Assembly: GCA_000092065.1 (NCBI GenBank)
Contig: CP000583.1
From: Ostreococcus lucimarinus
Taxonomy: Eukaryota
Direction: 5' to 3' (one strand)
DNA: 64,000 nt
In this document: positions 24,880-27,939 of the stretch, piece after piece
Numbering within the stretch: the first letter of the stretch is position 1
How the letters are laid out: every line of letters begins with the position of its first letter
Notes under the pieces: generated by a model
The model's input: the letters and a program-made list of their open reading frames with translations, nothing else
Told to the model about the DNA's origin: nothing
Database searches by the model: none
Made by a program: the position numbers and the translations under genes

Positions 24880-26400
24880 AACTTTCAAGAATGTGTTTTG
24901 ATATCACCCTTCTTTCCAGGGTAGAAACGCGCGTCAGTCGCGTCGTCGTCGTCGCCGCCTCGCGCGAACCTCGCGCGAACGTGTCCCTTCGCCTCCGAGG
25001 ACGCAATCGCTCGTGCGCGCGCGCGTTCGTCGCCGCGCGCGTTCGCCGCGGACGCGGCGGAGAGAACGCACGACGTTTTTCGTGACACGCGCTCGACACG
25101 CGCGCACCGCTCGCGCGCTTCCGACGCGCGCGTGGGCGGTTTCGAGCGCGCGGCGCGATCGTCCCTCGTTTCTCCGTAACGCATCGACGCTCGAGATGCG
25201 CGAACGAGACGCACGACGACGTACCGCTACCGCTACCGCTGCCGCAACCGCTATCGCGTACGCGCGCTCGCTGCGTGCTCGCTTCTTGCAATCGCGAGAA
25301 AGTGCGGCCACGAACGAGCGCCGGGTTCCTTCTGGATGAAAACGCCGATTCGTTGACCCGCCCGCCTCCCTTTTTCTGTTTTTTGCTTTTCGCCGCGATG
25401 TTTTCGCGCTTGAGAACCCGAAGCCGAGGACCGCGCCGAATCGACGCTCGCACGGGCGCCGACGCGCGTCGATCGGCGCGGCGCGATCGCGCAATCGCGC
25501 GAACGCGCGTCGACGCGCGTTCGTCGACCCCGCGATCGCGCGAACGGACGCGCGCGCGCGCGAACGCGCGCCATTCCCGACGCTCGCGCGTCGTTAACAA
25601 CGTCGCGTTCTTCGCACGCGCGCGTGGATTCGCGCGACGTGCGACGTCGGGCGCGCGCGAGCGCGCGCGACACGCGTCGATGACGGCATCGCGCGCGCGC
25701 CGACGCGCGCTGGACGCGCGGCGCGCGGAACGCGCGCCGTCGTCGCGAGTAATGTCGCGAATCGCCGCGCGCGGCGACGCGCGCGCGGCGTCGCACACGC
25801 GGGTGTGCGCGCCGTCGCACAAAGCGCTCGGCGACGCATTATACGAGCGGCGCGTCGGCGCGACGCCGCGTCGCGCGCGGTCGCGGACGAGCGCGTGCGA
25901 GCGGGGCGTTCGGAAGCGTGACGGGTGCGGACGCGTCGCGCGCGTCGTTCGCGCGGATGCGCGCGCGCGCGACGCGACGACGCGCGCGCGAATGTACGAC
26001 GATCGATTCGCGACGCTCGCGCGACGCGCTGGGCGTCGCGCGAGCGCCGCGCGGACGCGCGCTCGAGCGCGATGCGCGCGGCGATCGCGAAGACGAAACC
26101 TCGCTCGATCGCGCGCGCGCCTCGAACGCGCGCGCGCGTTCGGCGCCGAACGCGCAGCGCGCTGTGTCGCGCGCGCGCGGACGCTCGACGTGCAGATCGC
26201 CGCGCGCGCGATAAGGGTAAGTTCGTCGCGCGCGCGTCGGACGACGCGCGCGCGGCGATTTTCCGTGCGCGCGACGCGCGTTTCGCGCGTAGCGGCGCGC
26301 GCGGCGCGCGCTTCGACCGCGAAGCGCTCGATGCGCGCGCGCGCTCGAGCGAGGTTGCGTCTTCGCGACGCGCGCGACGATGCCTCGCGCGCGTCGCGCG
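24880..26400. repeat. About 1.5 kb extreme-GC low-complexity block (GCG/CGC-rich) between divergently oriented OTU and DNMT-like genes
   Basis: All six frames are open and encode only Arg/Ala-rich nonsense, for example overlapping ORFs 24851-26629(-), 25275-26534(+), 25594-26610(-). Almost pure cgcgcg/gacgcg words. Confidence 0.6.
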
Positions 26401-27939
26401 CCGTCGCGCGCCGAACCGGCGCGCGACGCGAGCGCGAACGGCGTCCCGCCGACGCGCACTGCGCTGTTTGCGCCCACCGTGGAGACCGGCGACCGCTTCC
26501 GCGTCGACGCGAGCGTGCGAACGCACACCGCTGAAGGCGGGCGAGCGTGGACCCCGTACTCGCCGGGGCGCGACGACGCGCCGTGCGTGGTCGGGTTCGG
26601 CGTCGTTCAAGCGGACTCTCGCATCGCATCCGAATACGACGAAGAATTGCGCAAAGCGCGCAAGTTGCGGCGAAAGCTCGGCCTAGAGCTCGTGATGGAT
26701 GTGCGCTACGCCCGAAATCGCGGGACGGTGCAGACGACCATGTCCGTGGAGACGTTCATCGATGGCGCGGGCGCCGCCGGGACGATCTTCGGGACTCGAA
26801 GTCAAAGATTCAGATTCGTCGAAAACGCGATTCGACGGCGATACCCGCGGCGCGCGCGCGCGCAAGACGACGACGACGGCCCTCCGTGCGACGCGGACGC
26901 CGCCGTCGCGTGGCTGCTCCGACAACCGCACGATTCGCGAGACAGTATCCTCGTCGAATTCGATCGCGATACCGTGCGCAAGCCTTCGTTTCCGTATCGC
27001 GTGGTGTACGAGAGCGAGTCCGGCGACGAAGGCGCGTTCGGATGCGCGCTCACGGAAGCTGAGTTCGCCGACTGGTTAGGCGGTTGGCGTCCGCCGCCGG
27101 CCGCGAATCTCGACGAATTCTTCGCGATCCTGCGGACGATGAACGTCGATTTGAGCGGCATCGATACCGTCAGGACGCGGTGGCTATGTTTTGAAATTGG
27201 CAGTGGATGGGCGAACGTGTCCCTGGCTTTAGCGGAAACGCTCGGCGACGACGTATTGTGCATCGCGATGGACCCGAAGGAAGGGCTGGAATCGACACGC
27301 GCGAAGAACCACCCGCGCGTGCTCATTCTTAACGAAGACGTGTGGGATGCCCAATTCTTCATGGACGTCAGAAGAGCCACCGCTGGGCGCGTGCTTCACG
27401 CGCACGCGTCGCCGCTGTGTAAGTATTACTCCACGGAGCAGCGCCCGAGGCGAAAAAATCTACGCGACCGCGGATTGCAGCACGTGATTGATGAAGAGCT
27501 GCTGCACGCAGACTCCATGGTGACTGTGGAAGTCGACACGTTACGACTGCTAAATCCGCTTAGCATCAGCGTGGAGAACCCGCACAACGACGCGGATGGC
27601 ATCGGCTCGCGATGCGATCTCTTGTCCGACGTGTACGCAATGCTCGACTTCCTCGTGAGGTGGAGCGTGAGCTACTGCCACTTCACAAAGGGCGAGATAC
27701 GGAAGCACACCGACCTGTACGTCACCCGCAATCTGTACGACGTCATGAAAGAGGCGAAATGGAAGGGCCTGTGCACGTCGAGGTCGCCGTGCGCGTACCG
27801 TCGCCGATCGGGGGCGAGGCAGCACAAGTCTGGCGTTCAAAACCAAAAGGGATCGGCGAAAAAAGGGAGAATCCCTTTAGCGCTCGCTCGCGACCTCGCC
27901 AAGCACGTCGGCGTTCTCAAGACGGGCGTCGCGCGTTGA
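26380..27939 (+). CDS. Divergent cytosine-5 DNA-methyltransferase-like protein; 5' boundary uncertain
   Basis: Ordered C5-MTase motifs: I 'LCFEIGSGWANVS' (FxxGxG); II-like 'CIAMDPKEGLESTRAKNHP'; IV 'ASPLCKYYS' (PC with Cys retained, Q lost); VI 'SVENPHN' (ENV to ENP); X-like 'RIPLALARDLAKHV'. Confidence 0.55.
   Translation: MPRARRAPSRAEPARDASANGVPPTRTALFAPTVETGDRFRVDASVRTHTAEGGRAWTPYSPGRDDAPCVVGFGVVQADSRIASEYDEELRKARKLRRKLGLELVMDVRYARNRGTVQTTMSVETFIDGAGAAGTIFGTRSQRFRFVENAIRRRYPRRARAQDDDDGPPCDADAAVAWLLRQPHDSRDSILVEFDRDTVRKPSFPYRVVYESESGDEGAFGCALTEAEFADWLGGWRPPPAANLDEFFAILRTMNVDLSGIDTVRTRWLCFEIGSGWANVSLALAETLGDDVLCIAMDPKEGLESTRAKNHPRVLILNEDVWDAQFFMDVRRATAGRVLHAHASPLCKYYSTEQRPRRKNLRDRGLQHVIDEELLHADSMVTVEVDTLRLLNPLSISVENPHNDADGIGSRCDLLSDVYAMLDFLVRWSVSYCHFTKGEIRKHTDLYVTRNLYDVMKEAKWKGLCTSRSPCAYRRRSGARQHKSGVQNQKGSAKKGRIPLALARDLAKHVGVLKTGVAR

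Follow-up and report, generated by a model that had tools for sequence, protein, structure and literature searches.

A nuclear-encoded protein of Ostreococcus lucimarinus with a catalytic domain related to the short C5 cytosine methyltransferases of phages

Short C5 cytosine methyltransferases are encoded by phages and prophages of Firmicutes. The member that served here as a bridging homologue is gp140 of Bacillus phage JBP901 (YP_009149178.1), a protein of 221 amino acids (aa). It passes the cut-off of the Pfam DNA_methylase profile PF00145 (34.9 bits; cut-off 22), over profile positions 1-113 only. Its gene lies between two full-length C5 methyltransferase genes and adjoins the phage DNA polymerase gene. 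A search with gp140 found at least 8000 clusters of this short subfamily; among the 120 listed, nearly all were 209-249 aa long and 119 had a PF00145 match. The NCBI name of the subfamily is 'DNA cytosine methyltransferase', and it occurs in Bacillus, Enterococcus and relatives. We describe here a gene (positions 26380-27939, + strand) in a 64-kb stretch of nuclear DNA of the alga Ostreococcus lucimarinus CCE9901 (the whole stretch is called the window below). Part of its product, aa 268-510, is almost certainly homologous to the C5 cytosine DNA methyltransferases of ~210-230 aa from Firmicutes phages and prophages.

DNMT5 is reportedly among the DNA methyltransferases (DNMTs) of the Mamiellales, a result credited to Huff and Zilberman in 2014. 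PMC5082852 describes very dense CG methylation in the nucleosome linkers of Mamiellales (Ostreococcus, Micromonas and Bathycoccus), in genomes without DNMT1 and DNMT3. It gives DNMT5 as the proposed maintenance enzyme and asks how the methylation is set up or targeted and whether further methyltransferases take part. Eukaryotic DNMTs were surveyed with BLAST by Funabiki et al. 2023. Their census (PMC10538959 supplement) contains five other O. lucimarinus accessions, including XP_001417393, XP_001417930 and XP_001422099; XP_001416586, the protein described here, is absent from it. In the literature we found no paper mentioning XP_001416586, A4RU05 or ABO94879.

Homology, fold and catalytic residues

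The gene is a complete open reading frame (ORF) of 519 aa plus a stop codon. Its translation is identical to XP_001416586.1 (ABO94879.1; UniRef A4RU05), annotated as 'predicted protein', and it sits on a 982,987-bp O. lucimarinus chromosome record with host-like composition. Neighbouring ORFs encode ordinary eukaryotic domains (SAP plus KH, ABC1 kinase, fasciclin, and a TPMT-like methyltransferase). Since M1 is the sole methionine upstream of the conserved region, which begins near aa 66, the start is annotated correctly; the orthologue P0002 uses the same start.

We found that the C-terminal half of the protein aligns with the short phage enzymes over nearly their whole length. A tblastn search with P0010, another member of the algal family, matched short genes annotated as 'C-5 cytosine-specific DNA methylase' in Bacillus Herelleviridae phages (~1e-6). 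When the profile of the algal family was aligned with gp140 by hhalign, the probability was 99.4% (E 1.6e-21) over 208 columns, covering gp140 residues 6-218 of 221. The window domain alone also matched gp140 by BLASTP (E 2e-14, 28% identity). An earlier note on this DNA, made from the letters alone, had called the gene a divergent C5 methyltransferase-like gene, and these alignments to a real C5 enzyme bear it out. The PHROGs family phrog_757 ('DNA methyltransferase') was matched by 7 of 10 family members, at a best E of 1e-10 (P0003 at E 0.13 only), and P0010 matched the type II methyltransferase and DruM cytosine methylase models of PADLOC. In searches of PDB sequences, the best match of the family profile was 3g7u, a prophage cytosine-specific methyltransferase, at a marginal E of 0.047 with motifs I-IV in register with the PC dipeptide; phmmer with the window protein against all PDB sequences gave only an insignificant Erm match, over motif I.

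The predicted fold is consistent with this relationship. We used an AlphaFold (AF2) model computed from a 10-sequence alignment, and not a 3-sequence model (predicted local distance difference test, pLDDT, of 44). The model had a pLDDT of ~80 over aa 245-519. All 48 of the 48 Foldseek hits in the PDB at E<=1e-3 belonged to the C5 family (DNMT1, MET1, DNMT2, ZMET2, M.HaeIII and a C5-carboxymethyltransferase). In three fold searches C5 methyltransferases were exclusively at the top, and NSUN-type folds ranked under the DNA C5 methyltransferases. Among the viral models of BFVD the leading matches were cytosine methyltransferases, including short ones from algal viruses and phages. The best whole-target coverage was by short proteins such as A0A2P0VN45 of Tetraselmis virus 1 (218 aa; template modelling (TM) score 0.70), and Q38204 of Halobacterium phage phiH (245 aa) was found in the structural search at a TM score of 0.52.

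The catalytic domain (27181-27909; all features of this gene are on the + strand) has motifs in the order I-II-III-IV-VI-VIII-X, which is the order of DNA-type C5 methyltransferases. The ORF and the motifs quoted in the earlier note were all present where it had placed them. We scored invariance in the 10-sequence algal alignment and in a joint alignment of 10 algal and 8 phage or bacterial sequences. Eight residues were invariant in the joint alignment (P345, C347, E399, C433, K442, T444, C465 and C471), and these eight plus H482 were invariant in the 10-sequence alignment. Another fifteen were nearly invariant in the joint alignment (E272, G276, D320, A343, S344, Y350, S351, N400, P401, Y432, D445, P470, R497, P499 and L502).

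Motif I, the glycine loop for binding S-adenosylmethionine (SAM), is LCFEIGSGWANV (27184-27219) and aligns with motif I of 3g7u and of M.HhaI (the M.HhaI sequence was entered by hand); its core FEIGSG is aa 271-276 (27190-27207), with E272 and G276 among the nearly invariant columns. Motif II, VLCIAMD (27253-27273), aligns with 'vysiEWD' of gp140 and carries the acidic D298 at the end of beta-2, within the motif II-like stretch CIAMDPKEGLESTRAKNHP (CIAMD...NHP, aa 294-312). D298, which presumably contacts the SAM ribose, is invariant within subfamily A of the algal family (see below), but across the family as a whole its column does not count as nearly invariant. Motif III is VLILNEDVW (27319-27345) and contains D320.

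Motif IV, HAHASPLCKYYS (27397-27432), has the family signature ASPxC..YS; ASPLCK is aa 343-348 (27406-27423). P345 and C347 are found in 18 of 18 aligned algal and phage sequences, and Cys347 lines up with the PC of 3g7u and, in M.HhaI (hand-entered sequence), with Cys81. Cys347 is the presumed catalytic nucleophile. Motif VI is SISVENPHN (27562-27588). It contains ENP (aa 399-401, 27574-27582), in which Glu399 is invariant and Asn400-Pro401 nearly so. Pro in place of Val is found throughout the short subfamily, PF00145-positive gp140 included. In place of QxRxR there is a motif VIII-equivalent, SVSYCHFTKGEIRKHTDLYVT (27664-27726), with the invariant Cys433, Lys442 and Thr444.

No motif IX was recognisable in the window protein, and neither was a conventional target-recognition domain (TRD). 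The earlier note had likewise seen no clear TRD after motif VI. At the expected position is a segment of ~45 aa that includes the Cys/His stretch KGLCTSRSPCAYRRRSGARQHK (27763-27828). Its Cys465 and Cys471 are invariant from phage to alga, and the algal proteins also share an invariant His482. A zinc site may be formed by the two cysteines with Cys433 and a nearby His. The domain ends with a motif X-like helix, KKGRIPLALARDLAKHV (27859-27909), containing RIPLALARDLA (aa 497-507), in which R497, P499 and L502 are the conserved positions.

The earlier note had read ASPLCK and ENP as substitutions at catalytic motifs that might indicate an inactive or neofunctionalised derivative. This reading was not supported. 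The motifs of gp140 are ELFAGTRS, VYSIEWD, WASPDCTSYS, FIENP, TVTYCQYGDTRMKPTDLW, KPACKNGAPCH and RSRIPEEL, with TYCQYG..KPTDLW as the VIII-like motif, so that SPxC and ENP are the standard signature of the short subfamily. They are not lesions, because they are conserved in an abundant, annotated phage and prophage subfamily in which the catalytic Cys and Glu are invariant.

The algal family and CG methylation at the locus

Relatives of the complete window protein were few. A search of 5.8 billion proteins found only four, and an exhaustive profile search of 1.84 billion representative proteins found 14 family members, several of them fragmentary; a word-indexed search with the family profile found no further members. 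The sources were marine metagenomes, one MMETSP transcriptome and run assemblies, and all family loci that could be placed carried Ostreococcus-type neighbour genes. Scanning of IMG/VR viral contigs with the window domain and with P0013 found no viral relative.

The sequences form three groups, and at least two of these are paralogous branches. Subfamily A consists of the window protein, P0002 (60% identity to the window protein) and P0003 (48%). Subfamily B consists of P0008, P0012, P0009/P0034 and P0010, which share 35-59% identity among themselves and 24-31% with subfamily A; one B member is a complete ORF in the MMETSP transcriptome. P0011 and P0047 form the third branch. Only the A-type copy is present in the O. 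lucimarinus window. One further sequence is anomalous. P0004 (L003, 1392-2945) is 97% identical to P0002 over its first 347 aa, the homology ends just before the sequence coding for motif IV, and the genes downstream in L003 differ from those in L001. Either P0004 is an allele that has been truncated or rearranged, or the assembly is chimeric here.

Codon comparison of the three subfamily A genes gave ratios of nonsynonymous to synonymous substitution (dN/dS) of 0.24-0.36 in the middle and C-terminal parts and of 0.9-1.15 over the first ~65 codons, compared with 0.25-0.4 over all that follows. The lower values, as a measure of purifying selection, indicate that the protein is functional, with a fast-evolving N-terminal tail. 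This tail (aa 1-65, 26380-26574) is rich in Arg, Ala, Pro and Ser, is encoded by DNA of 77% G+C, and has a pLDDT below 40. Judged from its sequence, it evolves neutrally and is probably disordered; it is possibly an organellar targeting peptide.

Between the tail and the catalytic domain is a family-specific domain (aa ~66-255, 26575-27144) that is conserved in subfamilies A and B and under purifying selection (dN/dS ~0.35). Its conserved blocks are RF....AI.R..P and (F)LV.(F/G).D.....KP..PY. It had no match in Pfam, NCBIfam or PDB sequences and no relatives outside the family among the 1.84 billion representative proteins. This agrees with the earlier note, in which the N-terminal ~270 aa had no recognisable domain. 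Pfam also identified none of the accessory domains BAH, RFTS, CXXC, PWWP, ADD, chromo or SNF2 in the window protein. Because the catalytic module is nearly without a TRD, we propose that the N-terminal domain supplies DNA or chromatin targeting, or substrate recognition.

One apparent relative provided information on methylation of the gene itself. All differences between the 83-aa 'homologue' P0007 and the window protein are of types such as P>L, H>Y, A>V, T>I, R>W and R>C. The 966-bp contig that encodes it (L010; Logan contig SRR847306_8079) aligned without gaps to window positions 27240-28205, and every mismatch was C>T. The contig is bisulfite-converted DNA of the CCE9901 strain. We found no paper in the literature that mentions run SRR847306. 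As the case of P0007 illustrates, translated bisulfite contigs pollute protein databases as fake 'divergent homologues'.

On the + strand of the contig all 148 of 148 non-CpG cytosines were converted and hence unmethylated, whereas 53 of the 113 CpG cytosines were retained (60 converted). The retained CpGs lay in alternating blocks with centres near 27272, 27452, 27628, 27806, 27986 and 28160, 174-180 bp apart (a period of about 178 bp). Methylation of the gene body is thus periodic and confined to the CG context, a pattern that matches the nucleosome-linker CG methylation of Mamiellales as cited in PMC5082852. The CG-only pattern assigns no role to the enzyme encoded here and excludes none, but it speaks against constitutive non-CG activity at the locus.

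The giant neighbouring gene and other features of the window

We found that the methyltransferase gene is paired with a very large gene. The partner encodes 1547 aa (20211-24854, - strand) and lies head-to-head with the methyltransferase gene across an intergenic, presumptive promoter block of 1525 bp (24855-26379). The earlier note had described a giant OTU gene opposite the methyltransferase gene, separated from it by a 1.5 kb 'pure-GC block'. The arrangement and distance were correct. The OTU assignment is marginal: the N-terminal OTU-like match to PF02338 (E 1.4e-4) scored 22.8 bits against a cut-off of 23.3, and the L006 orthologue of the giant protein has no OTU domain. The block is not pure G+C but 72% G+C, with a CpG observed/expected ratio of 2.09 and 27 CpG per 100 bp; it contains only short imperfect repeats and has no Rfam match.

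The rest of the giant protein consists of a large conserved core without a known domain and, at the C-terminus, three Myb/SANT-like repeats of 133 aa each. These repeats are encoded by a 399-bp tandem repeat (20254-21410; 2.9 copies, 96% identical). The L006 and L007 orthologues have two repeats, and the third copy is a recent O. lucimarinus expansion.

The pairing is conserved. In L006 (GCA_014466335.1) the giant orthologue (2758-6207, - strand; 45% identity over 1187 aa) is head-to-head with the subfamily B gene P0012. In L007/L008 the giant orthologue (L007 3164-7438, - strand; 49.5% identity over 1412 aa) is head-to-head with the subfamily B gene P0008, and in L007 a subfamily A gene (94% identical to P0003) lies ~1.3 kb beyond the 3' end of the giant gene. 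The two methyltransferase genes of L007 (416-1897, - strand, and 8361-10073, + strand) thus flank the giant gene. No neighbour other than the giant gene was common to the window, L006 and L007/L008 loci. The L001-L003 contigs end too near the methyltransferase gene to show the pairing. Since both subfamilies are present in one organism (L007), A and B are paralogues that are able to coexist, and the giant gene is linked to both. This arrangement suggests that the genes are co-regulated or work together, and proves neither.

One candidate domain in the giant protein was rejected. A GIY-YIG nuclease was indicated only by a sub-threshold Pfam match in one orthologue (E 0.012); there was no match in the window or L007 orthologues and none in PDB, and hhalign against I-TevI (hand-entered sequence) was negative. 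The call is therefore unsupported. PADLOC gave no match for the giant protein.

Other features of the window were noted in passing. There are 19 blocks with at least 70% G+C (500-1950 bp), mostly at gene starts and in intergenic DNA, for example at 1-1950, 9001-10200, 25401-26700, 31101-32600 and 56051-57350. Because it is one of 19 such blocks, the high-G+C spacer is a regional feature and not special to the methyltransferase gene. The CpG observed/expected ratio of the whole window is 1.67, so that CpG is strongly enriched even though its methylation is dense. An AT-rich 30-bp tandem repeat, GCTTAAATAAGATATCAATCGCGCTCGAAA (28157-28262; 3.5 copies, 98% identical), lies ~220 bp past the stop codon of the methyltransferase-like gene. 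The locus is flanked by two other genes for class I methyltransferase folds. The gene at 28735-29967 (+ strand) encodes a TPMT-like fold of a different Pfam family (PF05724, E 1e-25). The gene at 18314-19495 (- strand), considered as a second family member, is spermidine-synthase-like (PF01564, E 7e-5, just under the cut-off) and proved to be unrelated when compared with the family profile.

Proposed function and comparison with known systems

Based on these results we consider it reasonably probable that the protein is an active SAM-dependent C5 methyltransferase that combines a phage-type mini architecture with a novel targeting domain and acts on DNA. It would be a nuclear-encoded, two-part protein specific to Ostreococcus-like algae, with aa 268-510 forming a complete mini catalytic module. 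By analogy with the family, SAM would be bound at the FxGxG loop, D298 and D320, and the target cytosine would be flipped into the pocket. Cys347 (SPxC) would then attack C6 while Glu399 (ENP) protonates N3, and the methyl group would be moved to C5. Lys442, Thr444 and Asp445 would stand in for the canonical QxRxR contacts, and a small Cys-rich element (C433, C465, C471 plus His) would serve in lieu of a large TRD. A phage, a bacterium or an algal virus is the probable source of the gene, which would have been acquired long ago and would then have duplicated into subfamilies A and B. It appears to have been kept beside the giant OTU/Myb-like gene, and a bidirectional CpG-rich promoter likely serves both.

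Several observations weigh against this interpretation. Pfam-A and NCBIfam gave zero matches for XP_001416586.1 even at E<=10. The HMMER search with the DNA_methylase profile that the earlier note had suggested was negative: PF00145 matched neither the window protein at E<=10 nor the relatives P0008-P0016 at E<=1. The protein is thus outside PF00145 in the strict sense, and its link to canonical C5 methyltransferases is transitive and by fold. The window protein also had no match in PHROGs at E<=1, phrog_757 included, and none in PADLOC. Comparisons by hhalign with single canonical enzymes (JBP901 gp139, and M.HhaI with a hand-entered sequence) were not significant (E 0.09-0.3), with the register correct. 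No biochemical work on a member of the short subfamily was found in the literature, so that even its assignment to DNA rests on annotation and on the genomic context in phages. The AF2 model has low confidence over the N-terminal half. In L009, a short fragment upstream of the methyltransferase gene is not an orthologue of the giant gene, and the pairing was not found there. DNMT2 methylates C38 of tRNA, so a C5 fold can act on RNA. Finally, since 148 of 148 non-CpG cytosines of the bisulfite contig were unmethylated, any DNA activity in its source cells must be CG-directed, rare or conditional.

One alternative is that the protein has the same fold and chemistry and another substrate, RNA or nucleic-acid-like, with the N-terminal domain recognising RNA. 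The presence of DNMT2 structures among the significant fold matches, the missing TRD and the lack of non-CG methylation in the contig are all compatible with it, and DNMT5 is already regarded as the CG methyltransferase of Mamiellales (PMC5082852). However, the closest sequence relatives are phage and prophage enzymes encoded among DNA methyltransferase and replication genes, DNMT2 was no closer than DNMT1, MET1 or 3g7u, and Pfam detected no RNA-binding domain in the window protein. We regard an RNA substrate as unlikely.

Other alternatives concern the giant neighbour. It is distinctly unlikely, in our estimate, that the A and B methyltransferases and the giant gene form a conserved functional module, either for targeted or de novo methylation that complements DNMT5 or as a restriction-modification-like pair for antiviral defence and self-marking. 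As a rival to the interpretation above, it is very unlikely that the protein and the giant neighbour make up a conserved module of two genes with a restriction-modification-like, defensive or genome-surveillance role. In such a pair the Myb-like repeats of the giant protein would serve for binding DNA, which the protein might also cut, and the methyltransferase would mark self DNA. The giant gene does adjoin family methyltransferase genes in three lineages with no other shared neighbour, and in L007 both paralogues flank it. A GIY-YIG-like pattern in one orthologue and heavy prasinovirus pressure on Ostreococcus (PMC5082852) point the same way. However, the nuclease call is the unsupported one described above, the giant protein is unmatched in PADLOC, adjacency alone shows no function, and the pairing was not found in L009.

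It is highly improbable that the protein is a catalytically dead pseudo-enzyme that, like DNMT3L, serves as a regulatory subunit and binds DNA or SAM. Such a role would fit the motifs of subfamily A, which are the most derived (SPLC, with Leu for Pro or Asp, and an extended ENPHNDADGIGSR loop), the direct hidden Markov model matches of subfamily B members that subfamily A is without, and the fast evolution, with 60% identity between Ostreococcus species. Dead paralogues such as DNMT3L, however, typically lose catalytic residues. Here every expected catalytic and SAM-binding residue is kept, and the domain is under purifying selection. The protein is probably active and not degenerate, because Cys347 of motif IV and Glu399 of motif VI are unchanged throughout the aligned phage and algal sequences and dN/dS is 0.24-0.36. 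The last alternative, a generic class I SAM methyltransferase whose likeness to C5 motifs is fortuitous, would agree with the lack of Pfam and NCBIfam matches and with the weak Erm and HemK matches over motif I in PDB sequence searches, but it is effectively refuted by the hhalign alignment, which spans the whole PF00145-positive gp140 including the C-terminal half beyond the Rossmann core, and by the exclusive C5 matches at the top of the fold searches.

The gene encodes a candidate cytosine methyltransferase overlooked by standard profile and BLAST censuses, and represents a probable eukaryotic domestication of a phage-type mini C5 methyltransferase that has gained a new domain by fusion and has undergone duplication. 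Its linkage to a single large neighbour, which is conserved, is a further lead. The locus also illustrates that odd motifs (SPxC, ENP) can be subfamily signatures and not degeneration. Its importance would rise if the protein turned out to supply the de novo or targeted methylation still unaccounted for in Mamiellales, or to work in a module with the giant gene.

The earlier note had also suggested a novel, lineage-specific DNMT class. For the catalytic module this goes too far, since its kind is known; the eukaryotic host, the N-terminal fusion domain and the genomic pairing are lineage-specific. The comparison with described enzymes is as follows. RNA m5C methyltransferases (NSUN/RsmB/Fmu), which the earlier note had named as an example of an assignment that would refute its own, have a TC with a second Cys in motif VI. 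The window protein has E-N-P and no Cys there, in agreement with the lower rank of NSUN folds. Canonical C5 enzymes (M.HhaI, M.HaeIII, 3g7u and the catalytic domains of DNMT1, MET1 and DNMT3) have the same motif order, and the PC nucleophile and the motif VI Glu align. The window protein differs from them in having ENP for ENV and K.T for QxRxR, with no TRD and no recognisable motif IX.

Among eukaryotic enzymes the protein fits none of the DNMT classes (DNMT1, DNMT3/DRM, CMT, DNMT4/Dim-2, DNMT5, DNMT6 and DNMT2); it has no Pfam domain, and its nearest sequences are from phages. DNMT5 and the 'Chlorophyta DNMT6-like' clade of Mamiellales are found in the same organisms and belong to the same superfamily. 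However, those enzymes are detectable by BLAST with canonical DNMTs, whereas the window protein has another architecture and a phage-type closest relative. The Tetraselmis virus 1 and phiH proteins have the same mini architecture; they were compared by structure only, with 13-14% identity in the structural alignment. Tetraselmis virus 1 infects a green alga, which makes a virus-to-host route plausible.

The closest known systems are the short phage and prophage C5 methyltransferases (gp140, Bc431v3 ORF172 'C-5 cytosine-specific DNA methylase I' and phrog_757), with which the catalytic module aligns end to end. Common to both are ELxxG.. (I), ASPxC..YS (IV), ENP (VI), the VIII-like YCxxG...K.TD, C-x5-C, and the X-like RIP..L, and the phage enzymes are likewise without a conventional TRD, QxRxR or motif IX. 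In subfamily A the loop that follows ENP and the linker that follows motif VIII are longer than in these enzymes. Identity is ~28%, and the conserved N-terminal extension of ~265 aa is found only in the alga. The phage type is a single domain of ~210-250 aa encoded by a virus, whereas the window protein is 519 aa long and encoded on a eukaryotic nuclear chromosome.

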